From: a bacterium
Lineage (GTDB): Bacteria; Omnitrophota; Gorgyraeia; Aquiviventales; Aquiviventaceae
Length of the DNA stretch: 64,000 nucleotides
NCBI GenBank assembly: GCA_036396895.1
Contig: DASWKB010000038.1
Location: 13,145 to 77,144 of the forward strand
Direction of reading: 5' to 3'
Position 1 is the first letter of the stretch; every line of letters starts with the position of its first letter. The translations under genes were made by a program, and so were the position numbers. The notes below the pieces were generated by a model. The model did no database searches. It saw nothing but the letters and a program-made list of their open reading frames with translations, and had not been told where the DNA came from. This document shows positions 14,169-42,678 of this stretch, in pieces.

Positions 14169-16160
14169 TCAGAGCCGGCCGCGCACGAGCTGCTGCGCGA
14201 CCGCCGGGTCGGCGAGCGTCGTCGTGTCGCCCAGGTTGTCCACTTCACCGGCCGCCACTTTCCGGAGGATGCGCCGCATGATCTTGCCGGAGCGGGTCTT
14301 CGGCAGCGCGTCGGTGAACTGGATCTTCTCCGGCGTCGCGATGGGACCGATCACCGCACGCACGTGCGACATGAGCTTCTTGCGCAGCTCATCCGTGGGC
14401 TCGACGCCCTGCTTCAAGGTGACGTAGCAGTAGAGGCCCTGCCCCTTCACCTCATGCGGAAACCCGACCACCGCCGCTTCCGCGACCGTTTGGTGCGCCA
14501 CCAGGGCGCTCTCGACCTCCGCCGTGCCGAGCCGGTGCCCCGAGATGTTGATGACGTCATCGATGCGGCCCATCAGCCAGTAGAAGCCGTCCGCGTCGAC
14601 CCGGCAGCCGTCCCCGGTGAAGTACTTGCCCGGGAACATAGAGAAGTACACGTCCTTGATCCGCGTGTGCGCCGGATCGCCGTAGACGCCGCGGAGCATG
14701 CCGGGCCAGGGCTGCGTGATCACGAGCGAGCCGCCTTCGTTGACGGCGGCTTCCGTGCCGTCCTGCCGGAGCACCTGCGGGACCACGCCGAAAAACGGCT
14801 TTGTCGCGGATCCCGGCTTGGTCCCCAGCGCGCCCGGCAGCGGCGTGATCAGAATGCCCCCGGTCTCCGTCTGCCACCAGGTGTCCACGATCGGGCAGCG
14901 CGCCTTCCCGATGACCCGGTGGTACCACATCCACGCTTCCGGGTTGATCGGCTCGCCGACCGACCCCAGGATGCGCAGGCTGGAGAGGTCGTGTTTATTC
15001 GGCCACTCCTCCCCGAGCCGCATCAGGGCGCGGATCGCCGTCGGCGCCGTGTAGAACACCGTCACTTTATACTCCTCGACGATCTGCCAGAACCGGTCGG
15101 GCTCGGGGAACGTCGGAATGCCCTCGAACATGATCGCCGTCGCGCCGTTGGAGAGCGGCCCGTAGACGATGTAGGAGTGCCCCGTCACCCATCCGATGTC
15201 CGCCGTGCACCAGAACAGATCGTCATCGTGCACGTCGAAGATATACTTGAAGGTGACATGGACGAAGAGCAGGTAGCCCGCCGTCGTGTGGAGCACGCCC
15301 TTGGGCTTGCCGGTTGAGCCGCTCGTGTAGAGGATGAACAGCGGCGACTCCGCGTCCATCGGCTCAGGCGGGCACGGCCGGGCGGCCTCCGGACGCGCCA
15401 TCTCCTCATGCCACCAGAGGTCGCGGCCGGCCGTCATGGCGCAGCTGCCGTCGCCCCGGCGGTATACGATCACGGTCTTCACGCTCGGGCAATCCGCGAG
15501 CGCCTCGTCCGCCTTCGCCTTCATGCCGAGGGATTTGCCCCCGTGCACCGCCGCATCCGTCGTCACCAGGAGCCGCGAGTTGCAGTCCTGCAGCCGGTCC
15601 CGCAGGGCGCTGGGGCTGAACGCCGAGAACACGACCGAATGGATGGCGCCGATTCTCGTGCAGGAGAGCATCGCGACCGCCAGCTCCGGGATCATCGGCA
15701 TGAAGAGGGTCACCCGGTCCCCGCGCGTCACGCCGTGCGCCTTCAGGACGTTCGCGAACCGGCACACCTCGGCGTGCAGCTCTTCATACGTCAGGGTCCG
15801 CTTGTCCTTCGAGGATTCCCCCTGCCAGATGATGGCGGGCTTGGTCTTACGCGGCCCATCGAGATGACGGTCGAGGCAGTTGGCGCTCACGTTCAGCTGC
15901 GCGCCGTGGAAATACTCCACGTAGGGATGCTCGGTCTCGCCGATCGTGGACCAGTCGGAGCGTACGACCGCGTCCCAGCGCGTCATCCAGCTCAGGTGCT
16001 CCTCGGCCATCCGGCCCCAGAACGCCTCGGGCGACCGCACCGACTCTTCGTACATCATCCGGTATTCCTCTTCGCCCTTGATGAACGCGCCTTCCCGGAC
16101 TTTCGCGGGAGGATCGAAGCGCCGCTCCTCCTGCAGCAACGACGAAATATCTTGCGCCAT
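14169..16160 (-). CDS. acs: Acetyl-CoA synthetase (AMP-forming)
   Basis: About 660 aa from [18 protein letters not shown]. Carries the AMP-binding signature [12 protein letters not shown] and Acs-specific N- and C-terminal regions. Confidence 0.9.
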
Positions 16161-16187
16161 CGCATCCTCCTTCTCAGTATTCGCGAG

Positions 16188-16274
16188 AAGCTGGAGGTTG
16201 GAGGCTAGAAGCTCGAACATTCCAGCTTCCAGCATCCAGCTTCCAGCATCCAGCATCCAGCTTCCAGCTTCCGA
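16188..16274. repeat. Heptamer-array hairpin element, GCTGGAR family, copy 2 (includes a 7x CCAGCWT tandem array)
   Basis: gctggaggttggaggctagaagctcgaacattccagcttccagcatccagcttccagcatccagcatccagcttccagcttcc, between hypE and acs. Confidence 0.65.
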
Positions 16275-16302: not shown

Positions 16303-17355
16303 CTAGCAGATACGGGGCAGCTGCTCGCCGCTCAGCATATCAAGAATCCGGGAGGATCCGATGGCGCTTTTCAGCGAGACAAGGCCGGGGGTGTCGCCCG
16401 CCACCCGTCCGATTTCGACCGCCTGCTGCCCCAGCGGGTGCGCCCGCATCAGGGCCGCCGCCCGGGGAGCGTCCTGGGGCGCCACGAACGCGACGAACCG
16501 CCCTTCGTTGGCGACGTACAGCGGGTCGAGACCCAGCATCTCGCAGGCGCCGCGCACCTCCTCGCGAACCGGCACGGCCGCCTCATCGACCGCAAGCGGC
16601 ACCCGCGCGCTCTGGGCAAGCTCCACCAGCGCGCTCGCGAGACCGCCGCGGGTGAGATCCCGCAGGCAGTGCACCTCGATCCCGGCCTCCACCAGCGCCG
16701 CGACGAGGCCGGCGAGCGGAGCCGAATCGCTCTCGATCGCGCTCTCGAACTCGAGCCCCTCGCGGACCGCCATGATCGCGATGCCGTGCCGGCCGATGTC
16801 TCCGCTCAGCAGCACCACGTCCCCCGGCCGGATGCGGTCGGGACCGATGACCACGCCGGGCGGCACAAGACCGAGCCCCGCGGTATTGAGGTAGATCCCG
16901 TCGCCTTTGCCCCGGTCCACGACCTTGGTGTCGCCGGTCACGATGTCGACTCCGGCCGAGGCGGACGCCTCCCGCATGGAGCGCACGACTTCCCACAAGG
17001 ACGCCATCGGAAACCCCTCTTCCAGAATGAAGCCCACGGTGAGCGCGACGGGCTTCGCCCCGCACATCGCCAGGTCGTTGACCGTGCCGTGCACCGCGAG
17101 CGAGCCGATGTCACCGCCGGGAAATTTCCAGGGCCGCACGACATAGGAATCCGTCGTCAGCGCCACCCGCGTCCCGTTCACGCCGAGGACGGCGCCGTCG
17201 TGCAGCCGCTCCGGGCTGCCGCCGAAGGCGGGTACGAACACCCGCTCGATCAGCTGGCGCATCAGCTTGCCTCCACCCCCGTGCGCGAGCAGAATCTGCG
17301 GCGTCTCCGTGATCGGCAGCGGACACGCAAGCGACAGCGGGGGGCGCTCGCTCAT
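16303..17355 (-). CDS. hypE: Hydrogenase maturation protein HypE (carbamoyl dehydratase)
   Basis: From [15 protein letters not shown]…; has AIR-synthase-like domains and the HypE C-terminus …PRIC. The ORF in the track has a spurious Arg-rich N-terminal extension. Confidence 0.9.
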
Positions 17356-18458
17356 CGCGCCTCCACCTTCGCCGCGACCCCCCGGTAGCGGTAATAGGCG
17401 GCGCAGGCCCCCTCGGATGAGACCATCGTCGCGCCCATCGGGCGCTCGGGCGTGCAGCGGGTGCCGAACGCGGGGCACTCCGTCGGCTTCTTCACGCCCT
17501 GCAGCACGAGCCCGCTCTCGCACTCGGCGGGCTCCTCCGTATGGCGGTCCGCTACGCCGAAGCGGCGCTCGGCGTCGTGCGCGTCGTACGGCGGCCGCAA
17601 GCCCAGGCCGCTTGCGGGGATGCTCCCGACGCCGCGCCACTTGCGGTCGACGACCGTGAAGACCTCCCGGATCAGCGCCTGCGCCGGACGGTTGCCCGCG
17701 CGCCGGACCGCGCGCGCATACTGGTTCTCGACCTCGGCGCGGCCCTCCTCGAGCTGGCGGACGCACAGGTACACGCCCTGGAGGATGTCGAGCGGCTCGA
17801 AGCCCGTCACGACGATCGGCACGCGGTAGCGCGCGGCCAGCGGGCCGTATTCGGCGGTGCCCATGATCGTGCAGACGTGTCCCGCGGCCAGGAATCCCTG
17901 CACCCGGTTCATGGGCGAGCTCAGGATCGCTTCCATGGCGGGCGGGACGAGCACGTGCGAGACGAGCAGAAAGAAATTCTGGAGGGTCGCCCGGTGCGCC
18001 TGATACACGGCCATGGCGGTGGCGGGCGCGGTCGTTTCGAACCCGACGGCGAAGAAGACGACCTCGCGGTCGGGATGCGCGGCCGCGAGCGCGACGGCGT
18101 CCATCGGCGAATAGACGACCCGGACGTCGCCGCCGCGCGCCTTCACGGCGAAGAGGTCCTCGCGGCTGCCGGGCACGCGCAGCATGTCTCCGAAGGAGCA
18201 GAAGATGACGCCCGGCGCCGCGGCGATCGCGAGCGCTTTGTCGATGAGCTCAAGGGGCGTCACGCACACGGGACAGCCGGGCCCGTGGATCAGCGTGAGC
18301 TCGGGCGGCAGGAGCTCGTCGATGCCGAACTTCACGATGGCGTGCGTCTGCCCTCCGCAGATCTCCATGATCGTCCAGGGGCGCCTCGTGCGATTCGCGA
18401 TCAGCCGCGCGTAGCGGCGGGCGGCTTCGGCGTCGCGGTACTCATCGATGAATTTCAT
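17352..18458 (-). CDS. hypD: Hydrogenase maturation protein HypD
   Basis: 368 aa with MKFIDEYRD…, the GPGCPVCV motif and the CGG motif. ATGA overlap with hypE. Confidence 0.9.
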
Positions 18459-18709
18459 GGCGGCGGCGCCTCAAGTTCCGCGAGCTCGCCCATGCGCCGC
18501 AGGTAGTCGAAGACGACGGTCGCTTCCTGCTCGTCGACTTTGCTGATCGCGAACCCGACGTGCACGATCACGTAGTCCCCCACCCCGGCCTCGGGGACAT
18601 AGGAGAGGTTGACGGGCTTGAGGACGCCGCCGAAGCTCACCTTTCCGGTCCGCGCGCCGGGCTCCTCCCGCTCGAGGCGCACGATTTGTCCGGGCACGCC
18701 GAGGCACAT
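18455..18709 (-). CDS. hypC: Hydrogenase maturation protein HypC
   Basis: [11 protein letters not shown]-terminus (the MCL(A/G)(I/V)P signature), about 84 aa. Confidence 0.85.
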
Positions 18710-21414
18710 CACGTCCTCCGCTCGCTTCGGTCGGCGGCGAGAGCCTGGCCGAGCGACAGTCCGCCGTCATTCGGCGGAACGCGCTGATGCCAGTAGGGGC
18801 GAAATCCGGCATCGCGCAGGCGGCGCACCGCCCGCTCGGTCAGCCGGCGGTTCTGGAAGCACCCGCCGCTGAGCGCGACACGGCGCTCGCCGATCGCGGC
18901 GGCCGCCGCAAGGATATATTCTACCAAGGTCTCGTGCACGTTCGCCGCGATGATTCCCGCGTCCACGCCGCGCCGGCGGTCCTCGAGGAGCCCGCGCACC
19001 ATCGGACCCCAGTCGATCACGATGGGCGAGTCCGCCCCTCCCGGCCGGCCCAGCCGCACAGGGTACGGCCCGGAGCCGTCCGCGCGCCCGGCCACGTCTT
19101 CCAGCAGCATCGCCGCCTGCGCTTCGAACGCCGCGACCTGCCGCAGCCCGATGAGCGCGGCGACGGCGTCGAAGAGCCGCCCGGCGCTCGAGGTGATCGG
19201 CGCGTGGATCCCGCGCCTCAGCATGACCCGCAGCACCTCCCGCTCCTTCGGTGTGAACGCGGCCAGCGCCGGCACCTCGCGGCGCGAAAACGCCCCCTCG
19301 CCGAAGAGCTCGTACAGCACGCCGAGCGCCGAGCGCCGCGGCTCCTTGACGGCCTGATCCCCGCCCGGGAGGCGGAACGTGCGCAAGTGCGCCGCGCGCT
19401 CGAACCCCCGGGCGCCGACGCGAAGGAATTCCCCTCCCCAGACCGTGCCATCGAGCCCGTACCCCGTGCCGTCCCAGGCGACGCCGAGGACCGGCGGCTC
19501 CAGGTCGTTCTCCGCCATGCAGCTGAGCACGTGCGCGTAGTGATGCTGCACCGCCACGACCGGGAGGCCCGTCTGCCCGGCATACTGGGTCGAGCGGTAA
19601 TCCGGGTGGGCGTCGCAGGCGACCGCCTGAGGCCGCGCCTCGTGCAGGCGCGCGAGGTTCTCCGCGGCCTGCTGGAACGCGGCATACGCCTGCACGGTCT
19701 CGAGATCGCCCAGGTGCTGGCTGACGACCACGCCGGAGCCGACGGTGAGCGCGACGGTGTTCTTCAGGTGCCCGCCGACGGCGAGCACGGTCCGGACGGA
19801 GCGCCGCTTCAGCGGCACCGGCAGAGGGGCGTAGCCGCGCGCCCGGCGGATCAGAAGCTCGCGCTCGAGCACGACGCGCACGACGGAATCGTCCACGTGC
19901 CTGGCGATCGGCCGGTTGTGGACCAGAAAGAGGTCGGCAATGCCCTCCAGCCTGTCCAGCGCCTCGCTCTCGTCCGTGCAGATCGGCTCGTCCGAGAGGT
20001 TACCGCTGGTCGCCACGATGGGACCCGCGACCGCCTGAACGAGCAGGTGGTGCAGCGGCGTGTACGGGAGCATGACGCCCAGCGTCCGTTGCCCGGGGGC
20101 GAGGCTCTCCGCCAACGGGGACTCCTCAGGCCGGATCCGCTTCTCGAGCAGCACAATCGGGGCCTGGGGAGACGCGAGGAGGCGCTCCTCGATTTCCGAT
20201 ACGTCGCACTGCGCCCGCACCGCGCCGACCGAGCGCACCATCACCGCCAGCGGCTTCTCCTCGCGCCGCTTGCGCTCGCGCAGTTCCCGCACGGCGCCGT
20301 CATTGCGCGCGTCCGCGACCAGATGGAATCCGCCGAGCCCCTTGACCGCCACGATGCCGCCTGAGCGCACTGCCTCGGCCGCCGCCGCGAGCGCGGCGGC
20401 GTCCCTGGCCAGCACCGCGCCCGCCGGATCCCACAGCGCCAGACGGGGTCCGCAGGCCGGGCAGGCGTTCGGCTGGGCGTGGAACCGGCGGTCGGCCGGA
20501 TCGTCGTATTCGCGGCGGCAGTCCGGGCAGAGCGTGAAGCGGCTCATCGTCGTGGCCGGCCGGTCGTAGGGCAGTGCGAGGATAATGCTGAACCGCGGCC
20601 CGCAGTTCGTGCAGTTGGTGAACGGATACCGGAAGCGGCGGTCGCGCGGATCGTCGAGCTCCCGACGGCAGTCCGCGCACGTCGCCAAATCTGGCAGGAC
20701 GACGCCGGTCCGGGCGCCGCCCTGACCGCTTTGGCGGATGGCGAAACCGCGGAGCCCGGCCGCGTCCAGCCAGCGGACCTCCTCGCTGTACACCGCGGCC
20801 TGTGGCGGGAGATCATGGCGGAGCCCCTCCAGCAGCCGCGCGAGCGTCTCCGGAGCGCCTTCCGCCTCGACGATCACGCCTTGGGGGGAGTTCTGCACCC
20901 AGCCGTCGAGCCCGAGCCGGGTCGCCAGCCGGTGCACGAAGGGACGGAACCCGACGCCCTGTACCGCGCCGGTCAGGGCGACGTGGAGCCGCCGCCGCTC
21001 CTGCCGCGCGATCCGGATCCCGGATTGTTGCGCCATCGGACTCTCCATCCGCCGTGACGGCCCCTCGGCCGCCTCCGTCGAATCCGCCACCGTCACGTCG
21101 ATCACCTCGAGCGCGTGCGCACCCGGCACCTCGATCAGCGCGCCGCAGGCGCCGCACGGGAGCATCGACCCGGCGAGCGCGTCGTGCGTCACGGGCTCAT
21201 CGCGCCCGCACGCGCACCGGACGGACGTCACGCCCGGCTCGATGATGACCTCGGCGGACTCCAGGACGGACCCCGCCGAGGCGGCCGCGAGGGCGTGCCG
21301 CACCGCCTCGGGCGCGAGCGCGCCTCCCGCACGGACCCGCACCTGTCGTACTCCTGTCGGGAACCGCCGGGTGAGCTCGCGCATCAGGGCCAAGACGGAG
21401 CCGGATTCATGCAT
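18709..21414 (-). CDS. hypAF: HypA-HypF fusion: N-terminal HypA (Ni-insertion zinc-finger protein) fused in-frame to carbamoyltransferase HypF
   Basis: MHESGSVLALMRELT… plus CxxC…CxxC (CACGRD…CGACG) make a HypA of about 115 aa. After a linker comes the HypF acylphosphatase domain (LTGAVQGVGFRPFV), two CxxC zinc fingers, and the YrdC and Kae1-like domains, ending …GGLSLGQ. There is no stop codon between the HypA and HypF parts. Confidence 0.75.
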   Translation of the reverse strand: MHESGSVLALMRELTRRFPTGVRQVRVRAGGALAPEAVRHALAAASAGSVLESAEVIIEPGVTSVRCACGRDEPVTHDALAGSMLPCGACGALIEVPGAHALEVIDVTVADSTEAAEGPSRRMESPMAQQSGIRIARQERRRLHVALTGAVQGVGFRPFVHRLATRLGLDGWVQNSPQGVIVEAEGAPETLARLLEGLRHDLPPQAAVYSEEVRWLDAAGLRGFAIRQSGQGGARTGVVLPDLATCADCRRELDDPRDRRFRYPFTNCTNCGPRFSIILALPYDRPATTMSRFTLCPDCRREYDDPADRRFHAQPNACPACGPRLALWDPAGAVLARDAAALAAAAEAVRSGGIVAVKGLGGFHLVADARNDGAVRELRERKRREEKPLAVMVRSVGAVRAQCDVSEIEERLLASPQAPIVLLEKRIRPEESPLAESLAPGQRTLGVMLPYTPLHHLLVQAVAGPIVATSGNLSDEPICTDESEALDRLEGIADLFLVHNRPIARHVDDSVVRVVLERELLIRRARGYAPLPVPLKRRSVRTVLAVGGHLKNTVALTVGSGVVVSQHLGDLETVQAYAAFQQAAENLARLHEARPQAVACDAHPDYRSTQYAGQTGLPVVAVQHHYAHVLSCMAENDLEPPVLGVAWDGTGYGLDGTVWGGEFLRVGARGFERAAHLRTFRLPGGDQAVKEPRRSALGVLYELFGEGAFSRREVPALAAFTPKEREVLRVMLRRGIHAPITSSAGRLFDAVAALIGLRQVAAFEAQAAMLLEDVAGRADGSGPYPVRLGRPGGADSPIVIDWGPMVRGLLEDRRRGVDAGIIAANVHETLVEYILAAAAAIGERRVALSGGCFQNRRLTERAVRRLRDAGFRPYWHQRVPPNDGGLSLGQALAADRSERRT

Positions 21415-21973
21415 CGGGCACCGCCGGCTCAGGCGCGCGCGGAGGCGCGGACGGACACGCCAGGTCCCGCAGGATGCGCCCCGCGACCTTCGCAGACGCC
21501 CGTCGCACCGCGGGCGTGACCGGCGCTCCGGGATCAAAGCAGTCCCCCTCGATGCCGTACACCATCACCCGGGCCGGCAGACGGCGCATCGCCCGGGCCA
21601 GCTCGATCGCGTCGGCGACGCCCATCCCGTGCGTCGAGTGCTGGCGCAGCTCAGCCGGTACGGGACCCTCGCTCACGGCGAGCCGGTGGATCGTCCCCGG
21701 CCGAGCGCCGGAGGCGACGGCATCGATGAGCACGACGTGCTCATGGGCCGCCCAGGCATCCAACAACTCCGTCAGCGCGCCCCCGGCTTCGAGGATCTCG
21801 ACGCCCGGCAATGCCGCGGACCGAATGCGGCGCGCCGCCAGCACCCCGGCGGCGTCATCGCCGCGGAGCGTGTTCCCCATGCCCACCACGAGCACCCGCC
21901 CGGCCGGCAGAGGCGCCGCCGGACCGGCCGATGCCGCATCCGTCCCGGATGTCCGGCGCGCACGTCCCCGCAT
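21407..21973 (-). CDS. Hydrogenase maturation endopeptidase (HycI/FrhD/HoxW family)
   Basis: VLVVGMGNTLRGDDAAGV (GNxLxxDDG motif), about 160-188 aa, immediately downstream of the large subunit. Confidence 0.75.
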   Translation of the reverse strand: MRGRARRTSGTDAASAGPAAPLPAGRVLVVGMGNTLRGDDAAGVLAARRIRSAALPGVEILEAGGALTELLDAWAAHEHVVLIDAVASGARPGTIHRLAVSEGPVPAELRQHSTHGMGVADAIELARAMRRLPARVMVYGIEGDCFDPGAPVTPAVRRASAKVAGRILRDLACPSAPPRAPEPAVPDA

Positions 21974-21976
21974 GGC

Positions 21977-23300
21977 TCACTCCCGGAACAGCCGCAGCTT
22001 CAAGAAGTGCGTGGAACACGAAATGCACGGGTCGTAGTTCCTCACGGCCTGCTCGCATTGCCACTCGAGTTCCTTCGCCGGGAGCGAGAGCCGTTCCGGC
22101 ACAAACGCCCGGAGATCCTGCTCGATCGTGGCCTGGTTCACCGCCGTCGGAGACACGATCTTGGCGTCCCGGATCGTCCCCGCGTCGTCGATCGTGTACC
22201 GGTGGTAGAGGATCCCCCGCGGCGCCTCGGTGACGGCGTAGCCCGTGCCCGCGCGGGGCCGCACTTCGACGGCGGGGGCGTCGGGCGGCTCGTACGCCTC
22301 GATGATCCGCAGCGCTTCCTCGAACGCGAACACCGTTTCGACCCCGCGCACCAGGATGCTCCGGAACGGGTTCCGGCACGAGTCGCTCAGGCCGGCCTGC
22401 CGCGCCGCGTCTTGCGCGACCGACGGAAGGCGCTCGAAGTTCAGGCTGTACCGGGCCAGCGGCCCGACGTGCGCCGTGCCGCGGCCCTGCACCACGCTGT
22501 GCAAGGCGGTCGAATGCGGCTGGTGTTGCTCCAGCAAGTGGGCATCGTAGTCCCGGACCTCGATGTCGAGGCCTTTGTTGGACACGAGCCGTCCTTCGTT
22601 CAGCGGGTACTCCTCGGCGTGCCGGAGCGCCACGAACTCATAGTCCTGCTCGAAGTCCGGGTAGGACAGCGTGGCCAGCCACGACATCGTCTTCACGGCG
22701 GCGTCGCGCCCCCAGGCCAGTTCGTCGCGCATGACCGCCAGTTCCGACTTGGTCGGCACCCGGTAGAATCCGCCGATCTTGACGTTGATCGGGTGGATCT
22801 CCCGTCCGCCCAGGAGCGTCATGAGCGTATTGCCGGCCTTCTTCATGCGGAGGCCGCGCTGGACGAGCTCAGGATGGTCTTTGGCCATCTGCACCGCGTC
22901 CTGATACCCGAGGAAATCCGGCGCGTGGAGCAAAAACATGTGCAGCACGTGGCTCTCGATCCATTCGCCGCAGTACAAGAGCCGCCGGAGCGCCCGCAGC
23001 GGCCCGTCCACGGTCACGCCGCAGATCTGCTCCATCGCATGCACGGCGCACATCTGATAGGCGACCGGGCAGATCCCGCAGATGCGCGCGGTGAGATCCG
23101 GCGCTTCGCGGAAATCCCGGCCGCGCAGCAACGCCTCGAAAAACCGCGGCGGCTCGACAATGCGCAGCTTCACGTCCTTGACGTCCCTCCCGCGGATGCG
23201 GATGTCGAGGCCGCCCTCGCCCTCCACCCGGGCGAGATAGTTCACCTTAATGTGACGCGTCGCGGTGCGGGGCATGGGCTTCACTCTCCCGTCGGAAGAC
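21977..23300 (-). CDS. hydA: [NiFe]-hydrogenase large (alpha) subunit, group 3b (sulfhydrogenase/NADP-coupled type)
   Basis: N-terminal [10 protein letters not shown] and C-terminal [10 protein letters not shown] Ni-binding CxxC pairs. About 440 aa. Confidence 0.85.
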
Positions 23301-24044
23301 ATCGGCATAGGCGTTGTACGTCCGGAAGCTGCGCACGAGGTCCGCCTCATGCGCGCCCAGCTGCTTCCACTGCTCGCTCAGCGCGCGGGTGTTGGCGCTT
23401 TCCATCGGGCCGAAACACCCGTAGCAGCCGCGGGAGAAAGCCGGGCAGATCGCCCCGCAGCCGTCCTGGGTGACGGGACCCAGACACGGCGTCCCGTGGG
23501 CCGTCATCACGCACGTCAGGCCGCGACGCTTGCAGGTGAGGCAGACGCTCGACGTCGGCAGGTTCGGCGCCCGTCCGTTCAGGAGCGCGCTGAAGACTTC
23601 CAGGAGCTGCGCCTTGTTGATCGGACAGCCCCGCAGTTCCAGATCCACCGTCACGTGGTCGATGATCGGCGTCGAGCGCTCCAGCGTCTCGATGTACTCC
23701 GGTTTGGCGTAGACGATGGACACGAACTCGTTGACCTTGCGGAAATTCCGCAGCGCCTGGATCCCGCCCGCGGTCGCGCACGCCCCGATGGTCACCAGCA
23801 TCCGGGACGCCCGCCGCACCTGTTGAATCCGCTCGGCATCATGGGAGGTCGTCACGGACCCTTCGACCAGCGAGACGTCATACGGCCCCTTCACGACGGC
23901 CCGTGACGCCTCAGGAAAATTCGCGATGTCCACCGCGCCCGCCACCGCGAGGAGCTCGTCCTCGCAGTCGAGGAGGCTCAGCTGACACCCGTCGCAGGAC
24001 GCGAATTTCCAGACTGCCAGTGTCGGCCGCTTCACCGCTCCCAT
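23247..24044 (-). CDS. hydD: [NiFe]-hydrogenase small (delta) subunit, group 3
   Basis: [12 protein letters not shown]…IGACATAGG, a short group-3 small subunit lacking a Tat signal. Confidence 0.8.
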
Positions 24045-24045
24045 G

Positions 24046-24906
24046 TCATATCTCCCGCTTGGCCAGCCACGGTTCCACGCGATCGACCCGAAACACCGGG
24101 CCGTCCTTGCAGACAAAGAACGGCCCGAACTGACAGTGCCCGCAGAGCCCGATGGCGCACTTCATATTGCGCTCCAAGCTGACGTAGATCCGGTCGTTCG
24201 TCACGCCGCGCTTCTGGAGCTCCTGGACGGCAAATCGCATCATGATCTCGGGACCGCAGACCATGGCGAGCGCCTGCAGGGGATCGAACCCGGCCCGCCG
24301 GATCAGGGGCGTCACCACCCCGACGTTCCCGCGCCAGCCCCCTTCCCCCCGGTCGACGGTGACCTGGACGTCGAGGTCGAATCGCCCGCCCCAGAGCCGC
24401 AGCTCGTTGCGGAAGAGAATGTCGCTCGGCGTCCGGGTCCCGTACAGCAGCACCACGCGCCCGTACCGGGACCGGTGCGCCAGCACGTGATAGATGGCCG
24501 GCCGCAGCGGCGCCAGCCCGATCCCGCCCGCGACGATCACGACATCCCGGCCGGCGGCGAGGTCCAGCGGCCAGCCGGTGCCGAAGGGCCCGCGCACGCC
24601 GAGGAGCCCTCCGCGTCCAAGACGGCTCATGGCGTTCGTCACCGCGCCCACGGCGCGCGTGGTATGCCCGACGCGCACGGTGGATGCCGGATCGCCCGAG
24701 ATCGAAATCGGGACTTCTCCCACCCCGATCACGTCGAGCATGTTGAACTGTCCGGGCCTGAAGGGCCGGACGCGCGAGCCCGGCTGCGGCTGCAGCTCCA
24801 TCGTAAACGTGTCGGCCGTTTCCTTCCGCACCCGCTTAATGAGAAACAGGTCCGGCCGCATCGGATCGGCGCCCCGCCCGTTCGTCTTGGTCTTCGCGCG
24901 CATCAC
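24046..24906 (-). CDS. hydG: Hydrogenase gamma subunit (PyrK/AsrB-like FAD/NAD(P)-binding, 2Fe-2S)
   Basis: FNR-like fold and the C-terminal [10 protein letters not shown] 2Fe-2S motif. Confidence 0.8.
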
Positions 24907-25363
24907 GCTCCCCCGTAGAGGTCCTGCAATTGCAGGCGAGCCGACTCCAGCCGGTCCGCGATCACCTGCGAGAAGCGCCGCAGGAGTTCATACCCCAGGT
25001 CGTGATCCTGCTCGCATTTCTTCCGCAGACACTCGCCGTCCAGCACCACGGCGCGGACCGGCGTCAGGGCGCGGGCGTCAAAGCGCCACTGATGCGGCGG
25101 GATGAGCCACGACCAGCCGAGCACGTCCCCCGCGGAGACGGTCTGAATCGTCCGGGGCGACCCGCCCACCGGCGGCAGCTCGATCCCGACGCGGCCTTCG
25201 CGCAGCACGTAGAACGCATTCGCCGGCTCGCCCGTGCGGAATATGTACGCCGCGGGCTGCACGGCGACGTTCCGCGCGCATCCGGCCAACACCGTGACGT
25301 AGGGGGCCGGAACATCATGGAAAAACGGGTGGTCGGCCAACAGCGACGCCAGATCGCGCATCA
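24903..25363 (-). CDS. Standalone cyclic-nucleotide-binding (cNMP/CAP effector) domain protein lacking an HTH
   Basis: About 150 aa from [16 protein letters not shown]…; has the beta-roll signature ([18 protein letters not shown]…). It overlaps the hydB stop (ATGA) and the hydG start, so it is embedded in the hydrogenase operon. Confidence 0.6.
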
Positions 25364-26545
25364 GGAGCCTCCTGGGGTGGCCGGCGGATCGCACCGCTCG
25401 GACTCGCGGATTTCCCGGACTTCCTCGGTCACATCGATGCCAACGGGACACCAGCTGATGCAGCGCCCGCACCCCACGCATCCCAGGGTCCCGAACTGGT
25501 CGACCCACGTCGCCAGCTTATGCGTCAGCCATTGCCGGTATCGCGCGCGCGTCGAGCTCCGGATGCTGCCGCCGTGAATGTAGCTGAACGCCATCGTGAA
25601 GCATGAATCCCATTTCCGGACCCGCTCCGCCGTCGTCCCGGTCAGGTCGGTGACCTCCTCCACCGTCGAGCAGAAACAGGTCGGGCACACCATGGTGCAA
25701 TTCGCGCAGGCGAGGCACCGCGACGCGACCTGATCCCAGCGCGGGTGGTCCAGATGCCGGTAGAGCAGGTCCTTCAGGCCGTCCACCTCCAGCGTCCGGC
25801 CCATCCGGGCGGCCGTCTCCGCCACCGCCGACGTCGCGCGGGCCACCGTCTCCGGATCGGCCGGCCGGTGCGCGAGCTCGGCGAGGAGCTCCCCGCCGCG
25901 CGCCGTGCCGACCTCGATGAGGAATTCATGACGCTGCGCGTCGCACAGCTCGGTGAGCGCCAGGTCAAATCCCGTCGTGGCTGCCGGGCCAGACTGCACG
26001 GACGCGCAGAAGCAGGTGCCGCCCGACTGGGTGCAGTTGACCGCGATCAGGCACGCGGATTGACGGCGGGCCGCGTACTGCGGATCGGCCCACGTCCCCT
26101 CGAGCAGAATCCGGTCCTGCACCGCGATCGCCTGAAGCTCGCATGCCCGCACGCCGAGGAACGCCAGCTTCTCACGCGGCGCGCCGCCCCCCGTGAACGC
26201 CGGCGCCCGCCCGGAGCGATCGACCCGGCAGACGGTCGCCACGGGAGGGTACAGCCAGCGCTTCCATGACTGCGGGCTGAGCGTATAGCCGAAGAGCGTG
26301 TCGTGCTCCCGGCGGAAGAGCCGGTAGCGCCCCGGGGCCTGCTCGTCGCCCCACCCCGCCGGCAGCGCCTCGGGCCCATCGAGTTCATCGTAGACCACGG
26401 CGCCGTCCCGCACGGTCGGACCGATCACCCGGTACTCCCGCTTGCGCAGCGCGTCGAACAGGCTCCCGAGCGCGGCGCGTTCCATGAGCGCCCGCCCCCC
26501 CGTCCCGAGGGCCCGCCGATTCCCCTGTGATGCCGTGCCGCCCAT
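25361..26545 (-). CDS. hydB: Hydrogenase beta subunit (AsrA-like, multiple 4Fe-4S clusters)
   Basis: CLACANCTMVCPTCFC plus further Cys clusters; about 394 aa. Confidence 0.8.
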   Translation of the reverse strand: MGGTASQGNRRALGTGGRALMERAALGSLFDALRKREYRVIGPTVRDGAVVYDELDGPEALPAGWGDEQAPGRYRLFRREHDTLFGYTLSPQSWKRWLYPPVATVCRVDRSGRAPAFTGGGAPREKLAFLGVRACELQAIAVQDRILLEGTWADPQYAARRQSACLIAVNCTQSGGTCFCASVQSGPAATTGFDLALTELCDAQRHEFLIEVGTARGGELLAELAHRPADPETVARATSAVAETAARMGRTLEVDGLKDLLYRHLDHPRWDQVASRCLACANCTMVCPTCFCSTVEEVTDLTGTTAERVRKWDSCFTMAFSYIHGGSIRSSTRARYRQWLTHKLATWVDQFGTLGCVGCGRCISWCPVGIDVTEEVREIRESERCDPPATPGGS

Positions 26546-26558: not shown

Positions 26559-27587
26559 TCACGATCCGTCCGGCGCGTCGCCGGGCCGGGGACGCAGCGC
26601 GTAGGAACGCAGCACCTTCATGTAATTGGCCCGCTCGAACGCTTCGGGCTCGGCCACCGCCACCGTGCTCATGCTGCCCTGCATCTGCTGGACGGACTCG
26701 TATTCGTGCTCTTCCATCCACCGCACGAGGCCGGCCGTGAGCGTCTGCACGTGCTCGGGGCCGTGGCGCAGCAGCGCCGAGGTCATCATGGCCACCCGCG
26801 CGCCGGCCATCATGGCCTTCAGGACGTCCTCCGCCGTGTGGACGCCCCCCGTGACCGCCAGGTCCGCGCGCAGGCAGCCGTAGAGCATCGCCACCCACTG
26901 CAGGCGAAGCCGCAGCTCATCCGACGTGCTGAGCCGCAAGTTCGGGACGACCTCCAGCCGCTCCAGATCCAGATCCGGCTGATAGAACCGGTTGAACACG
27001 ACGAGCGCATCCGCCCCCGCGGACTCCAGGCGGCGGGCGATGTGGGCCAGCGCGCTGAAGAACGGGCTGAGCTTGACGGCCACCGGGATGTCGATGCTCG
27101 CCGCCACGTCCCTGACCAGCTGGACATACATCGCCTCGACGTCCGCGCCGCTGGTGTCCGGATTGGTCGGGATGAAATAGACGTTGAGCTCCAGCGCGTC
27201 TGCGCCGGCCTCCTGGATCCGCTTGGCGTAGCTGATCCAGCCGCCGGTGGAGACGCCGTTCAAACTGCCGATGATCGGGATCCCCACCGCCGCTTTCGCC
27301 CGCCGGATGTGCTCGAGGTACTCCTCGGGTCCGAGGTTGTAGCGCGTCATGTCCGGAAAGTAGGTGAGCGCCTCCGCGAAGCTCTCCGTCCCGTAGGAGA
27401 GGAACCGGTCCAGGTCCTGGCTCTCCAGAACGATCTGCTCCTCGAACAGCGACGGCAGCACGACGGCCGCGATGCCCGCGTCCTCGAGGCGCTGGATGCT
27501 CCGGAGGTCCTCCCCCAAGGGCCCGGCCGAGGCGACGAGCGGGCTGCGCAGCGTCAATCCCAGGTAGCGCGTCGTGAGGTCAGGCAT
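26559..27587 (-). CDS. Dihydroorotate dehydrogenase-like (PyrD class 1-like FMN TIM-barrel) protein
   Basis: …[11 protein letters not shown]…, [11 protein letters not shown] and [19 protein letters not shown] match the DHOD family. Sits between PFOR and hydB. Confidence 0.65.
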
Positions 27588-30500
27588 GAGGGGCCTCCGG
27601 CGGCGCGTCCGTCACGGCGCTGGACGCCAGGTGCTGGTAGCGGCGCCATCGCACCCTGACGTCCTCCTGCGCGAGCTCCAGCAGGCGCTTGGCCTCCTCC
27701 GGATTGCTGTGCGCCAGCATGGTGTACCGGGTCTCGTTGTAGATGTAGTTCTCCAGGGGGATGCTGGGCGGTCCGGAGTCGATCAGCAGCGGGTGCTTGC
27801 CGTCCCCCGGGCGCGCCGGGTGGTACCGGAACAGCGGCCAGTGCCCGGATTGAACCGCGGCTTTCTGCTGGTCCATCCCGTGCACGAGGTCGTAGCCGTG
27901 CGCGATGCAGTGGCTGTAGGCGATGATCAGCGACGGCCCATCGTAGGCTTCCGCTTCGAGAAAGGCCCTCAGGGTCTGCATGTCGCTTGCGCCCATGGCC
28001 ACCTGCGCGACGTACACGTGCCCGTAGCTCAGCGCCATGAGCGCCAGGTCCTTCTTCGGCATCTGCTTGCCGCTCGCGGCGAACTTCGCGACGCCAGCCC
28101 GCGGCGTGGCCTTGGACATCTGGCCACCGGTGTTCGAGTACACTTCCGTGTCCAGCACGAGCACGTTGACGTTGTGCCCGGAGGCCAGGACGTGGTCGAG
28201 ACCGCCGTAACCGATGTCGTACGCCCAGCCGTCCCCGCCCACGATCCAGACGGTCTTCTTGACCAGGACGTCCGCCAGTCGCTCCAAATCGGCCCCCTCC
28301 TGCTCCGCCAGCCCGCGGAGCCGCTCCTTCAGGCGCGCCACGCGCTGCCGCTGCGCCCGCAGGCCGGTCTCGGAGCTCTGGTCGGCGTTGAGGATCGAGT
28401 CCACGAGCTCCTCGCCGACGATGTCGCCGAGCTTGACCAGCAGCCGCTTGGCATAGGCCCCCTGCGCGTCGAGTGCCAAGCGCATGCCCAAGCCGAATTC
28501 CGCGTTGTCCTCGAAGAGGGAGTTGGCCCACGCCGGCCCGCGGCCGTCCCCGTTCGCGGTCCAGGGCGTGGTCGGAAGGTTCCCGCCGTAGATGGAGGAG
28601 CAGCCCGTCGCGTTGGCGATCATCGCCCGGTCGCCGAAGAGCTGGCTGAGCAGCTTGAGATACGGCGTCTCGCCGCATCCCGCACAGGCGCCGGAGAATT
28701 CGAACAGCGGCGGCAGGAGCTGCACGTCCTTCACCTGCGCGAGCGCGAGCGCCTCCCGGTCCGCCTCGGGCAGCGACAGGAAGAACTCCCAGTTGTCCCG
28801 CTCGGCCGTCCGGAGCGGCTCCTGCGGGTGCATGTTGATGGCCTTGTGCCGGACTTCGCGCTTGCTCTTGACCGGACACACCTCCACGCACAGGGCGCAT
28901 CCGGTGCAGTCTTCCGGCGCGACCTGCAGCGTATAGCGGCGGCCGCCGAACTCCCGCCACCGGGCGGGCGCGGACTTGAACGTCTCCGGCGCGCCCTGGA
29001 GCCGGTCCGCCGGATAGACCTTCCCCCGGATCACCGCATGCGGGCAGACCAGCACGCACTTGCCGCACTGCACGCAGAGCGTCTCGTCCCACACCGGGAT
29101 CTGCAGCGCGATATTGCGCTTTTCCCAGCGGGCCGTGCCCGTCGGATAGGTGCCGTCGTCCGGCAGCGCGCTCACGGGCAGCTGGTCCCCCTGCCCGACG
29201 ATCATCCGCCCCAGGACGGACTTGACGAACTCCGGCGCCTGCGCGGGGACGGGCGGCAGGAGCTCGAGCGCGCCGTCCGCCTCGGCGGGCACGGCGACCT
29301 CGTGCAGGTGCTCGAGCGCGTGATCGACCGCCGCGAAATTCTTCTGGACCACGGCTTCCCCCCGCTTCCCGTACGTCTTCTGGATGGAGGCTTTGATCGC
29401 CGTGATCGCCTCCTCCCGTGGCAGGACGCCGCTGATGGCGAAAAAGCAGGTCTGCATGACCGTGTTGATCCGCCGGCCCATCCCCGCTTCCTGCGCCACC
29501 CGGTACCCGTCGATGACGAAGACGCGCAGGCGCTTCTCGATGATCTGGCGCTGCACGGGGCGCGGCAGATGCGCCCAGACCTCCCCCGGCCCGTACGGGC
29601 TGTTGAGCAGGAACGTCGCCTCGGAGCGGGCGACGGAGAGGACGTCGAAGCGCTCCAGGAACGAGAACTGGTGGCACGCGACCACGCTCGCCTGCGTGAT
29701 CAGATAGGCCGAGCGGATCGGCCGCGAGCCGAAGCGCAGGTGGGAGACCGTCATGGATCCCGACTTCTTCGAGTCATAGACAAAGTACCCTTGCGCGTAG
29801 AACGGCGTCCCCTCGCCGATGATCTTGATGGAGTTCTTGTTCGCCCCCACCGTCCCGTCGGATCCGAGGCCGTAGAAGATCGCCCGGTGCGTATCCGCGT
29901 CCTCGGTCGAGACCTCCGGGTCGTAGGCCAGGCTCGTCATGGTGACGTCGTCCACGATGCCGACCGTGAAATGGTTCTTCGGAGAGGCGCTCGAGAGCTG
30001 ATCGAACACGCCCGTCAGCATCGCCGGGGTGAACTCCTTGGACGAAAGCCCGTACCGGCCGCCGATGATCTTCGGATGCGTCCGGAAGGGCGCCCGCCCG
30101 GCCGACACGGCTTCCTGGACGGCGGCGACGACGTCCAGGTACAGCGGCTCGCCCGCGCTGCCGGGCTCCTTGGTGCGGTCGAGCACCCCGATGGCGGTCA
30201 CCGTGGGCGGCAGCGCGGCGATGAAGTGCTCCACCGAGAAGGGGCGGTAGAGCCGGACGTTGATGAGCCCGACGCGCGCCCCACGGGCGGTCAGGTACTC
30301 AACGGTCTCCTGGGCCGTTTCGGCGCTGGAGCCCATCAGGACCACCACGTGCTCGGCATCCGGCGCGCCGAGGTAGTCGAAGAGGTGGTAGCGGCGACCC
30401 GTCAGGCGGCCGAGGGCGTCCATCGCGCCCTGCACGATCGCCGGACACGCGAGGTAATACGGATTGGAGGCTTCGCGGGCCTGGAAGTGCACGTCCGGGT

Positions 30501-31161
30501 TGTGCGCCGTGCCCCGGATGACCGGCCGGTCCGGAGTGAGCGCGCGGGCTCGGAACGCGCGAACCAAGTCGTCGTCGATCAGGGCCCGGAGATCCTCGGG
30601 GGCGAGCCGTTCGACCTTCATGACCTCGTGCGAGGTCCTGAATCCGTCGAAGAAATGCACCGCGGGCACGCGGGACTTGAGCGCGGCCGCGTGGCTCACC
30701 AAGGCGAGGTCCATCGCCGCCTGCACGGAGCTGGAGGCGAGCATGGCGAACCCGGTCGCGCGCGCGGCCATCACGTCGCTGTGGTCGCCGAAGATCGACA
30801 GCGCCTGGGTCGCGATGGACCGGGACGCGACGTGAAACACCGTCGGGAGCAGCTCCCCGGCGATCTTGTACATGTTCGGGATCATGAGGAGCAGGCCCTG
30901 CGAGGCGGTGAACGTCGTGGTCAGTGAGCCCGCCTGGAGGGCGCCGTGCACCGCCCCCGCGGCTCCGCCTTCGCTCTGCATCTCTTCAACCGAGGGAGGA
31001 ACCCCCCACAGGTTCGGCCTGCCCTGGGTCGCCCACTGATCCGCCCATTCCCCCATGGTCGAAGAGGGGGTGATGGGATAGATCGCGATCACCTCGCTGA
31101 GTTGATAGGCGATCTCGGCAACCGCCTGGTTGGCATCGAGCGTCACGCTCGGGCGTGGCAT
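27580..31161 (-). CDS. nifJ: Pyruvate:ferredoxin (flavodoxin) oxidoreductase, single-polypeptide NifJ/PFOR type
   Basis: 1193 aa with ferredoxin-like [12 protein letters not shown] and the TPP motif [16 protein letters not shown]. Confidence 0.9.
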
Positions 31162-34702: not shown

Positions 34703-35356
34703 TTACACGCGCACGCGGAACTCGGCGCCCGCGGTTCGCTCGCCGGCGATGTCGCCCTCGAGTTCCCGGATCAGCGTCCGGCAGTCAATCCCGTGCCGCC
34801 AGGCCACCTCGTCGAGGCACACCAGTCCCTCATCCTGAATGTTGATGAACATCCGCCGGAATACCCCTGCGGCTTCCGGATAGGCACGGAGCACCCGGTT
34901 CACGGTCATTCGCTCATCGACGCCGGCCTCCACCGAAGGCTCACCGAACTCCTCCTCGGAGGGGAGCCGCCGTTCAAGTTCCGGAAACAGCATGGCTTCC
35001 TCCTCGTCCATATGCCGGCGCAGCCGCTCGATGAGCGCGAGGAGCCGCGGGCGGATCGCCGCACGTGCTTCTCCCGGTCCCTGGACGAACGCCCGGTTGA
35101 TGGCGCTCAGCAGGCGCGGCTCGCGGCGGTGCGTCACGCCCAGGTGCGCGATCTCATCCGGTTCCAGCGAGGCGCGGCACCGGCTGATGAGCGACTCCTC
35201 CCGCCTGATATGGTCCTTCAACTGGCGCGCGAGCGTGTACACGAGCTCCCTCGCCACGTACCATGCCTGCGGATGCAAGGCAAGCGCGCTCTCGAGGATC
35301 TGAAGTTTCGCGCGCAGCAGCGCGTGCTCGCGCCGCAGGCGCTCCACCGGTTGCAT
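34703..35356 (-). CDS. Hemerythrin HHE cation-binding domain + C-terminal DUF1858 (ScdA_N-like) protein; has the RIC/YtfE domains in reversed order
   Basis: H…HxxxE motifs (RREHALL, KDHIRREE, HMDEEE) and a C-terminal …VLRAYPEAAGVFRRMFI…CLDEVAWRHGID… segment. Confidence 0.6.
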   Translation of the reverse strand: MQPVERLRREHALLRAKLQILESALALHPQAWYVARELVYTLARQLKDHIRREESLISRCRASLEPDEIAHLGVTHRREPRLLSAINRAFVQGPGEARAAIRPRLLALIERLRRHMDEEEAMLFPELERRLPSEEEFGEPSVEAGVDERMTVNRVLRAYPEAAGVFRRMFINIQDEGLVCLDEVAWRHGIDCRTLIRELEGDIAGERTAGAEFRVRV

Positions 35357-35575
35357 CGCGACCTCCCGTCTCCTCCCGCGCCACAGAGACCCGGAGCGTA
35401 CGAGGTTGCGCGCTGTGGTGCTCACATCCTACGTTCGGCCTGCGCACCCTTTCGGCGTCGGCTCGATGATGATGTCCAACTCGCGCTCGAGGGCCGCCAC
35501 GTGGCCCGCCTGGACCTGCGCGCCGACGGCGATCATGATCAGGCGCGCCGGAACCCGGGCGCGCTATGACGCATG

Positions 35576-36271
35576 TCAGCCCCCGGCGCGGACAGTCCCG
35601 TCGCGAGACGCGGTCCGGCCGTTGCCGTCAACCAGATGCCTGAGCTGCTCCGGCGCGAGCACCGTGATCTTGCCGCGGGATGACGTGATCCACCCCTTCC
35701 GCTTCATCGTGGAAAGCGTCCGGATCGAGGTCTCCCAGCGAGTGCCGGCCATCCTGGCCAGCTCGTGGTGCGTCAGCGGAATCGTCACGCCGAAGGTCGT
35801 CCGAAGCCTGAGCAGCACCGAGGCCAGCCGCTGTTCCACGGGCGCCTGCCCGAGACGGATCGTCTCCGCCATGTGGCGCATCCGGTGAATGCAGCTGGTG
35901 ATGACCGCTTCGGCGAACTGCGGATACTGCGAAATGAGCTCGCCGCAGGTGGCGGACGGAATCCGAACCACCTGAGCGTCCGTGGCGGCCAGAGCCCCGG
36001 CGGAGTACGTCCCGCGTTCGAACGCGGAAATGCCGCAGAGCGCCTCGTCCGGCGTCATCGTGAAGATCGTCGCCAGGGATCCCTGGGGGGTGCGCTTCAC
36101 CAGGAACACGACCCCGCGCTTGAGCACCCACACGGCTTCCGCCGGCTGATGCTCCTCGAAGATCATGGCGCCCTTGCCGAACCGTAGACGCTGGCACTCG
36201 GACGCCAACTGCCGGCACACCGGGGACGGCAGAGCTTGAAACAGCGGCACAGAATCGAGCAGATGCTCCAT
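35576..36271 (-). CDS. Crp/Fnr family transcriptional regulator
   Basis: cNMP-binding beta-roll plus a C-terminal HTH (TIPLTHHELARMAGTRWETSIRTLS). Confidence 0.8.
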   Translation of the reverse strand: MEHLLDSVPLFQALPSPVCRQLASECQRLRFGKGAMIFEEHQPAEAVWVLKRGVVFLVKRTPQGSLATIFTMTPDEALCGISAFERGTYSAGALAATDAQVVRIPSATCGELISQYPQFAEAVITSCIHRMRHMAETIRLGQAPVEQRLASVLLRLRTTFGVTIPLTHHELARMAGTRWETSIRTLSTMKRKGWITSSRGKITVLAPEQLRHLVDGNGRTASRDGTVRAGG

Positions 36272-36398: not shown

Positions 36399-37055
36399 TC
36401 AGGAACGGACGAGCTCGCTGAGGTGCTTGGGATGGACGATCGTGGTCTTGCCGCGGACGGACCGGATCCACCCCTGCTGCTTGAAGCGGCTCAAGGTGCG
36501 GATGGCGGTCTCATGCGTCGTGCCCGCCAGCTCGGCCAGCTCGTGGCGGGTCAGCGGAATCGTCTCGCCGAATTTCTTCTGGAGCGTGAGCAAGACTTGC
36601 GCGATGCGCTTTTCTGCTGGCTCGTAGGCGGTGCAGCTCTTGTGCTCGACCTGGCGCAGGCGATCGCAGAACAGGCACAGCGTCTGGCTGGCGAATTCCC
36701 TGGACTTCGCCATGGCCTGGTGGAACATCTCAAGCGGAACCCGGACGAGCGTGCTGTCCACGGCGGCAATGGCATCGACGGGATAGGCCTTGCGGTCCAG
36801 CGTGGAGAGGCAACAGAAGGTCTCCCCGGGGGTCATGACGCACGTGGTGGATGCCCGGCCGTCGGCGAAGAAATTCATCAGGTGGACGCGTCCGGTACGC
36901 ACGACCCAGACCGCGTCGGCCTGCTCGTTCTGCCGGAAGACCGTTTCGCCCTTGGCGAACCCGCGCTCGCGGCTCACGGACGCGACCTGCTGCAACTCCG
37001 CGGGCGTCAAGCGCTTGAACGGATCCACGTTGGCCAGAAATTGCTGCATCATGCC
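36399..37055 (-). CDS. Crp/Fnr family transcriptional regulator (second paralog)
   Basis: From MMQQFLANVDPFKRLT…; has the HTH TIPLTRHELAELAGTTHETAIRTLS. Overlaps the end of ccsA. Confidence 0.8.
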   Translation of the reverse strand, partial: GMMQQFLANVDPFKRLTPAELQQVASVSRERGFAKGETVFRQNEQADAVWVVRTGRVHLMNFFADGRASTTCVMTPGETFCCLSTLDRKAYPVDAIAAVDSTLVRVPLEMFHQAMAKSREFASQTLCLFCDRLRQVEHKSCTAYEPAEKRIAQVLLTLQKKFGETIPLTRHELAELAGTTHETAIRTLSRFKQQGWIRSVRGKTTIVHPKHLSELVRS

Positions 37056-42603: not shown

Positions 42604-42678
42604 GGACCGGCCGAGCGGGCATGACACGTTACACATCCAACATGACACAATCGGGATTCCGCATTCCGCATTTGGCAC
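42540..42678. repeat. Heptamer-array hairpin element, GGAATKC family, copy 2 (longest; near-perfect terminal inverted repeats)
   Basis: gtgccaaattcggaattcggaatgcggaatg …(unique core with tgtcatg/catgaca and ggctcggc/gccgagc sub-palindromes)… gggattccgcattccgcatttggcac. Confidence 0.75.

Follow-up and report, generated by a model that had tools for sequence, protein, structure and literature searches.

Can HypA and HypF, two well-known maturation proteins of [NiFe] hydrogenases, exist as one polypeptide, and if so, how did the two come together and do both halves still work? The question is raised by an open reading frame (ORF) in which hypA runs on into hypF, located in a 64,000-nucleotide stretch of DNA (the window) from a member of the Omnitrophota (NCBI assembly GCA_036396895.1, contig DASWKB010000038.1, positions 13,145 to 77,144 of the forward strand). 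This ORF is a new domain architecture made from the two proteins, found in one uncultured high-GC bacterium. In hydrogenase maturation, HypF carbamoylates the C-terminal cysteine of HypE with carbamoyl phosphate and ATP, and HypE dehydrates the product to a thiocyanate. The Fe(CN)2CO group is put together by HypC and HypD, which place it in the large subunit, and nickel is added next by HypA, usually acting with HypB or SlyD. A protease cleaves the C-terminal extension of the large subunit after nickel insertion.

The window contains a single stop-free hypA-hypF frame on the minus strand (18709..21414), with 901 codons and a TGA stop at 18709-18711, which translates without interruption. Six Pfam domains lie in order along the 901-residue protein. 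A preliminary description of this DNA had reported the in-frame continuation of HypA into HypF and a start reading MHE, and we confirmed both: the frame is open through all 901 residues, modules of both families were detected, and the protein begins with Met-His-Glu at 21414. The ATG at 21414, chosen here and also in the NCBI record of the 901-residue product (HEX9780513.1), gives the N terminus (MHESG) that is obligatory for HypA and overlaps the stop of the maturation-protease gene that precedes it (ATGCATGA). An alternative, longer frame from an upstream TTG would encode 942 residues.

The larger part of the protein is the HypF module (residues 141-901; 18712..20994, minus strand). Within it, Pfam recognized an acylphosphatase domain (residues 144-226), two zf-HYPF zinc fingers, a Sua5/YrdC domain (348-524), and the two Kae1-like C-terminal domains HypF_C (540-635) and HypF_C_2 (644-890). 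The NCBIfam HypF equivalog model TIGR00143 scored 817 bits against a cutoff of 466, with residues 146-894 matching model positions 2-740 of 741. Judged by its sequence, the module is complete and corresponds to the full-length HypF with acylphosphatase, two zinc fingers, YrdC-like and Kae1-like domains that had been described for it. It is 58-64% identical to unfused HypF proteins of 750-810 residues. From the family it belongs to and from the hypC, hypD, and hypE genes beside it, the fused HypF would be expected to carbamoylate the C-terminal cysteine of HypE.

The HypA module (residues 1-110; 21085..21414, minus strand) was recognized by Pfam, phmmer, a subfamily profile, and structure prediction. 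The Pfam HypA model matched residues 1-103 with 34.4 bits (gathering cutoff 28.9). An exhaustive phmmer search of 1.84 billion representatives clustered at 50% identity, with residues 1-135 as the query, returned 70 proteins of 68-204 residues at E ≤ 1e-3. The top matches were standalone HypA proteins of about 116 residues, the best of which aligned from end to end with 41% identity (E = 3e-15). A profile of the subfamily matched the HypA structures 3A43 from T. kodakarensis (1.4e-11) and 6G81 and 2KDX from H. pylori (4e-7). An AlphaFold2 model of residues 1-141 had predicted local distance difference test (pLDDT) values of 87-96 across residues 1-110. The best 14 PDB matches of this model in Foldseek were all HypA, with probabilities of 0.99-1.00 (the top 12 at 1.00) and template modelling (TM) scores of 0.4-0.6; they included a HypA-HypB complex and HypA bound to the group-3b large subunit HyhL (5YXY/5YY0).

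The residues expected to bind metals are also in place. The nickel site of HypA consists of the free N-terminal amine, His2, and Glu3. The fusion has the MHE motif (21406-21414, minus strand) at the start of its HypA module, and because HypA forms the N terminus of the fusion, the free amino terminus of this site is preserved. The cysteines of the zinc site, read from the sequence, are C67, C69, C87, and C90 (within 21145-21216, minus strand). The two CxxC pairs reported previously need a correction, as the first pair is C67-A-C69 (CxC) and only the second, C87-G-A-C90, is CxxC, which gives CxC-17-CxxC overall. Among 41 aligned members of the HypA subfamily, C67, C87, and C90 are invariant and M1, H2, C69, and G70 nearly so; all seven are present in the fusion. 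Hence, the CxC...CxxC arrangement characterizes this subfamily and does not indicate decay. The mean identity of the module to long-form standalone members is 36%, compared with a range of 31-42% among these members themselves, and its GC content at third codon positions (GC3) is 0.91, next to 0.90 in the rest of the gene. The module thus looks like a divergent but intact HypA that belongs to the family at the level of Pfam, as far as sequence comparison and the predicted fold can tell.

The two modules are joined by a linker (residues 111-140, ADSTEAAEGPSRRMESPMAQQSGIRIARQER; 20995..21084, minus strand), delimited by low AlphaFold2 confidence and by the ends and starts of homologues. pLDDT across residues 111-141 drops from 96 to 67, 60, 56, and 42. 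A linker had been noticed in the preliminary description and is present, with a length of about 30 residues instead of the 25 reported. Standalone HypA proteins of the subfamily stop 2-12 residues past the final strand (LEVxxV), and the N termini of the closest unfused HypF proteins align to residues ∼126-141 of the fusion. The linker therefore appears to combine a former HypA tail or junction (residues ∼111-126) with an ordinary HypF leader (residues ∼127-140). The HypA frame stays open for about 30 codons in this region, with a GC3 of 0.83. Reading the junction DNA, ...CGG CGG ATG GAG AGT CCG ATG GCG..., we found what may be relic start signals (21034..21048, minus strand): the M123 ATG (21046-21048), a GGAGAG Shine-Dalgarno motif (21041-21046), and, 4 nt behind it, the M127 ATG (21034-21036). 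Comparable GGAG(G) motifs precede the pyruvate:ferredoxin oxidoreductase (PFOR) gene, hyhB, and hypC in the window with similar spacing. The GGAGAG motif and the M127 ATG look like the old start of hypF, and they may still function.

Is the continuous frame an artefact of sequencing or assembly? The fusion protein is on record from three sources, an NCBI third-party metagenome-assembled genome (MAG), an ENA assembly, and a JGI contig, with contigs of 77.7 kb, 19.2 kb, and 10 kb, respectively. Over 15,190 nt that take in the junction, the ENA contig (locus L001) matches the window with 100% identity. The JGI record was compared as a protein and differs from the ENA protein only in how the GTG start is written. 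A stop codon or frameshift in the linker, which would divide the ORF into separate hypA and hypF genes, is absent from both DNA assemblies compared, and the JGI protein is identical. The different contig breaks indicate separate assembly runs, which makes an assembler artefact unlikely, while the sequence identity of all three records indicates that they probably go back to one sample.

We then asked whether the fusion occurs elsewhere. Among the best 120 HypF relatives from a collection of 5.8 billion proteins, a HypA domain was present only in the window's own cluster; the 119 others have 752-813 residues, and the nearest of them reaches only 64% identity to the fusion. We also ran profiles of HypA and HypF over all stop-to-stop ORFs of 80 HypF loci taken from GTDB species representatives and of some further loci. 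HypA and HypF shared one frame only in the window and its duplicate L001, and in none of ∼87 other loci. The literature searched did not contain a HypA-HypF fusion, and a 2025 review of [NiFe]-cofactor assembly describes neither a Hyp fusion nor an interaction between HypA and HypF (PMC12134894). The fusion had been called unusual, and within this partial census it is.

The census is partial because searches with N-terminal fragments are all but blind to domains fused to long proteins from a family with many members. The phmmer search with residues 1-135 missed the fusion itself, evidently as unfused HypF proteins represent it in the database; that search speaks for HypA homology and not for the absence of fusions. 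A word-index search with the N-terminal 141 residues found nothing and missed even a 100% identical entry, so that it is of no use as a census. The same kind of search with residues 1-230 returned only short or partial HypF N termini and missed the known fusion, with an apparent bias to short entries. In the 15 loci returned by a scan of JGI metagenomes with residues 1-230, the match was confined to the acylphosphatase domain, and none was an independent copy of the fusion. One candidate second fusion, L062 (tblastn alignment of query residues 25-894), was rejected as it has a stop codon and a change of frame between hypA and hypF. Long stop-free extensions upstream of other hypF genes (for example in L024 and L009) were also rejected; they are rich in arginine, proline, and glycine, look like non-coding read-through, and are not HypA.

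The gene that usually separates hypA from hypF is missing here. The absence of hypB from the cluster, as claimed before, extends to the whole window: a six-frame translation of the 64 kb contains neither the HypB P-loop nor the ENVGNLVCP motif, and no match to CobW/HypB was found by Pfam in the ∼45 window ORFs scanned, a set that stops short of the two ORFs at the right-hand end (59881-62817 and 62822-63946). For comparison, the ENVGNLVCP motif search recovers HypB in 31 of 103 locus sequences. The only hypA found in the 64 kb is the module of the fusion.

Such hypB-less arrangements recur. When we sorted 87 non-redundant HypF loci by the genes upstream of hypF, hypA-hypB-hypF was the commonest linked order (19 loci), and hypA lay directly before hypF in 10. 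Seven had hypB upstream without a preceding hypA, and 51 had neither gene upstream on the same strand. The HypB motif ENVGNLVCP was present in the flanks of none of the 10 hypA-hypF loci, compared with 26 of the 77 others, which, together with the commonness of the hypA-hypB-hypF order, is consistent with a derivation of the hypA-hypF layout by loss of hypB. In the closest HypF relatives (61-64% identity), a separate hypA abuts or overlaps hypF and there is no hypB. Loci L002 and L003 (GCA_900696445.1) have the order hyhB-cNMP-hyhG-hyhS-hyhL-protease-hypA-hypF-hypC-hypD-hypE (cNMP, cyclic nucleotide monophosphate), and at the junction in L002 (...GAG TGA ATG...) hypF starts in the same frame at the base after the hypA TGA. 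The two genes overlap by 26 nt in L004 (Deinococcus sp. MAG GCA_016199255.1) and by 8 nt, in different frames, in L062 (Aggregatilineales MAG), where HypA is of the CxC type and the Shine-Dalgarno motif of hypF lies inside the hypA tail. With genes this close, one stop substitution or an indel of 1-2 bases would fuse them. Clusters lacking hypB have also been reported in Frankia, in which some lineages reportedly have neither hypA nor hypB beside their only hydrogenase (PMC11879354).

Most of the hypA genes that abut hypF in hypB-less loci encode a short HypA of ∼80-94 residues, with an MHE or GTG-encoded start, no zinc-site cysteines, and a short loop in place of the zinc domain. These genes lie directly upstream of hypF in L002 (7737-8000), L004 (500-784), L061, L075, L081, L089, and L096, in genomes and MAGs labelled Deinococcus, Nitrospinia, Enhydrobacter, Nitrosomonas, Chloroflexia, and Dehalococcoidia. 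We found no description of a short HypA without a zinc domain from hypB-less clusters in the literature searched. The hypB-less hypA-hypF clusters, several with such a HypA, may be a more rewarding lead than the fusion itself.

Taken together, we consider it probable that the ORF is a genuine stop-loss fusion which arose in a hypB-less hypA-hypF operon and gives a protein of two modules, each doing its usual work. The simplest history would start from hypABFCDE: after loss of hypB, hypA would have come to abut hypF, and the loss of the hypA stop codon by a point substitution or a small indel would then have created the fusion. The immediate ancestor would have been a packed protease-hypA-hypF-hypC-hypD-hypE operon from which hypB had been lost or in which it had never been present. 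Translation would begin at the ATG of the MHE motif, coupled to that of the protease gene, and internal initiation at the GGAGAG-ATG of M127 may allow HypF to be made alone as well. The fused HypF would use carbamoyl phosphate to form the thiocarboxamide on HypE from which the CN ligands derive. The fused HypA would supply nickel to the large subunit of the group-3b-like hydrogenase encoded next to it, and the protease would cut the C-terminal extension afterwards. The disordered linker of ∼30 residues should let the modules act independently, and the product would be a bifunctional protein with a forced 1:1 stoichiometry, possibly topped up by HypF made from M127. The open frame, the intact state of both modules, the synteny, and the rarity are observed, and from the stop-loss origin to the activity of both modules and the internal start, these are steps that we infer. 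The fusion event was probably recent, and its singleton status suggests that it was roughly neutral.

Several observations weigh against this reading. The HypA module scores far below the cutoffs of the NCBIfam HypA equivalogs (19.2 versus 88.1 bits for TIGR00100 and 24.3 versus 146 bits for NF001976), and this divergence from the canonical HypA models, like the good Shine-Dalgarno motif and ATG kept at M127, would fit a HypA part that is dead or dispensable, with HypF made from M123 or M127 or tolerating the extension, and with nickel supplied by another HypA encoded elsewhere in the genome or non-enzymatically. Hydrogenase maturation independent of hypA and hypB is known in E. coli at high nickel; the Frankia lineages mentioned above point in the same direction. 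We nevertheless regard a dead appendage as unlikely, since all residues conserved in the subfamily are intact, the module has diverged no further than standalone members have from one another, its codon bias is undiminished, a HypA fold is predicted with confidence, and the module is the only hypA in the 64 kb and stands beside an intact hydrogenase. The fusion is also confined to one population, and the three identical records, which probably share reads, may share a base error or a rare allele. Thus, one wrong consensus base could have removed a real hypA stop, or the frame could differ, and hypA and hypF would be ordinary separate genes as they are in relatives; a single change would be enough, with the linker codons TCA, GAG, and TCG one step from a stop. 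Such an error is quite improbable in our estimate. Short-read assemblies seldom contain substituted bases in their consensus, the junction DNA is the same in two assemblies with different breaks, the JGI record has the identical protein, the HypA frame stays open with its high GC3 through all of the linker, and the NCBI annotation accepted the 901-residue product.

Two further objections concern function and retention. HypA acts at one end of the pathway and HypF at the other, so that there is no obvious substrate channelling between them, and the fusion is a singleton, absent from all the other HypF proteins and loci compared, so that there is no evidence of selective retention. Could the fusion be adaptive all the same? 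In hypB-less systems HypA might work attached to HypF, with the covalent link as the extreme form of this partnership: the nickel chaperone might be recruited to an assembly line of HypF, HypE, and HypCD with the large subunit, or the ATP cycle of HypF might replace the NTPase switch of HypB. Adjacency together with fusion is classic 'Rosetta stone' evidence, and the 10 loci in which hypA abuts hypF come from several phyla and uniformly lack the HypB motif; the absence of the zinc domain from many of the abutting HypA proteins suggests a modified route of nickel insertion. Against this, deletion of hypB from the common hypA-hypB-hypF order trivially explains the adjacency, the linker, with its predicted disorder, resembles a former intergenic or tail segment, and the review cited above describes no interaction of the two proteins. 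With no sign of retention besides, an adaptive fusion seems rather doubtful to us. We hold it to be just as doubtful that the fusion exposes a broader HypB-independent nickel route, in which HypA would partner HypF or HypF-HypE-HypCD and one complex would deliver both the nickel chaperone and Fe(CN)2CO, with the fused protein as a 'Rosetta stone' of this partnership. In our view, a single step from a recurrent hypB-less layout accounts best for the fusion, and we do not take it to show any new functional tie of nickel insertion to cyanide synthesis.

Should the fusion protein be produced in an active form, HypA must be able to deliver nickel while permanently tethered to an ∼84-kDa enzyme of another cofactor-assembly step. 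This would constrain models of how HypA docks on the large subunit, and the protein would be a ready-made construct for asking whether the Hyp proteins act as one assembly complex. Together with its hypB-less relatives, some of which have a HypA without a zinc domain, the fusion points to a poorly studied mode of nickel insertion that does without the HypB NTPase. Even as nothing more than a recent, neutral stop-loss, it would neatly illustrate how packed, overlapping operon genes become a multidomain protein.

The fusion gene belongs to a compact operon on the minus strand, in which the genes follow the order PFOR, dihydroorotate dehydrogenase (DHODH)-like gene, hydrogenase genes, protease, hypA::hypF, hypC, hypD, and hypE. 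The gene for a HycI/HoxW-like hydrogenase maturation endopeptidase (21407..21973; Pfam HycI; 119 bits with TIGR00072) has a stop that overlaps the ATG of the fusion by 8 nt. Downstream, hypC (18455..18709; Pfam HupF_HypC; a gene call in L001) encodes 84 residues beginning MCLGVPG, and its ATG overlaps the TGA of the fusion by 1 nt (TGATG). It is followed, with overlaps of 4 nt each, by hypD (17352..18458; 513 bits with Pfam HypD and 501 bits with TIGR00075) and hypE (16303..17355; 437 bits with TIGR02124), the latter with 350 residues according to the gene call in L001.

Upstream of the protease gene, Pfam matches and a gene order as in L002 identify a four-subunit [NiFe] hydrogenase resembling group 3b (21977..26545, minus strand). 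It comprises a HyhB-like Fe-S subunit (25361-26545), a HyhG-like NAD(P)/FAD-binding subunit (24046-24906), a small subunit (∼23247-24116), and a large subunit (21977-23275/23350) with RICGICP and the C-terminal motif DPCISCSTH followed by a 9-residue extension. The best NCBIfam matches of the subunits were sulfhydrogenase ShyA/B/C/D and HydA/B/G/D (alpha to delta), all under the equivalog cutoffs. Pfam architecture, NCBIfam matches, and cysteine motifs therefore support the label group-3b-like. With the Ni-Fe cysteine motifs and a cleavable C terminus retained in the large subunit, nickel insertion and proteolysis should still be needed. A small ORF for a cNMP-binding protein (∼24903-25508, minus strand) lies between the HyhB-like and HyhG-like genes, overlaps both, and is kept in the same place in L002 (3876-4370), which hints at cNMP-linked regulation or at an extra subunit of the hydrogenase. 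Immediately upstream of the hydrogenase genes are the genes for the PFOR (1,193 residues) and the DHODH-like protein (26559-31161, minus strand), and an acetyl-CoA synthetase gene (14169-16256) lies just downstream of hypE. These neighbours suggest a role of the hydrogenase linked to pyruvate and acetate.

The window, in which Rfam found no match, contains a second in-frame fusion outside this operon, in this case of consecutive pathway enzymes. A 648-residue ORF (1376-3322, minus strand) combines a HEM4/HemD uroporphyrinogen-III synthase (residues 26-267) with a URO-D/HemE uroporphyrinogen decarboxylase (residues 308-645), and it is also one gene call in the ENA contig L102. The region 40687-50589 (minus strand) encodes multihaem c-type cytochromes, one of them fused to a cytochrome b561-like membrane domain, a cytochrome b, a Rieske protein, and a 678-residue protein with a weak match to MtrB/PioB-type porins; ResB/CcsA-type cytochrome c biogenesis genes are found at 37049-40512. 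The cluster at 40687-50589 has the appearance of a module for extracellular or periplasmic electron transfer. It is flanked, on the far side from the hydrogenase operon, by genes at 34703-36271 and 52208-57788 (minus strand) for two hemerythrin-domain proteins, Crp/Fnr-type regulators, an ArsR-type regulator, NnrS, a radical-SAM protein, and a nitrite/sulfite reductase, a region that may respond to NO, nitrite, or oxygen.

How does the fusion compare with known systems? Its N-terminal module resembles HypA (PF01155; 3A43, the HypA-HypB complex 5AUN/5AUP, the HyhL-HypA complex 5YXY/5YY0, and 2KDX/6G81) in having an N-terminal Met-His-Glu, an alpha/beta nickel domain with a four-cysteine zinc knuckle, and a length of ∼110 residues, and in being encoded beside a [NiFe] hydrogenase and protease. 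Known HypA proteins end after the last strand, whereas the module runs on into HypF; its first cysteine pair is CxC and not the canonical CxxC, and it has no HypB partner gene within 64 kb. Compared with the E. coli-type HypF (TIGR00143), the fusion has all domains in the canonical order and is likewise followed by hypC, hypD, and hypE, but it has an N-terminal extension of 140 residues (HypA and linker) that the 119 other listed relatives lack. The closest parallels are the hypB-less protease-hypA-hypF-hypCDE clusters of L002, L004, and L062, which have the same gene order and orientation and in which hypA touches or overlaps hypF. L002 also shares the four-subunit hydrogenase and the cNMP-binding ORF upstream, a region that the contigs of L004 and L062 are too short to reach. 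All three clusters have a stop codon between hypA and hypF, and L002 and L004 encode a short HypA (87 and 94 residues, respectively) without the zinc-site cysteines, whereas the window keeps the zinc site. The canonical hypA-hypB-hypF-hypC-hypD-hypE operon, the probable ancestral layout, has hypA and hypF-C-D-E in the same relative order. It differs in the presence of hypB, the gene for the GTPase partner of HypA, between hypA and hypF, and the absence of this gene from the window has brought hypA next to hypF.

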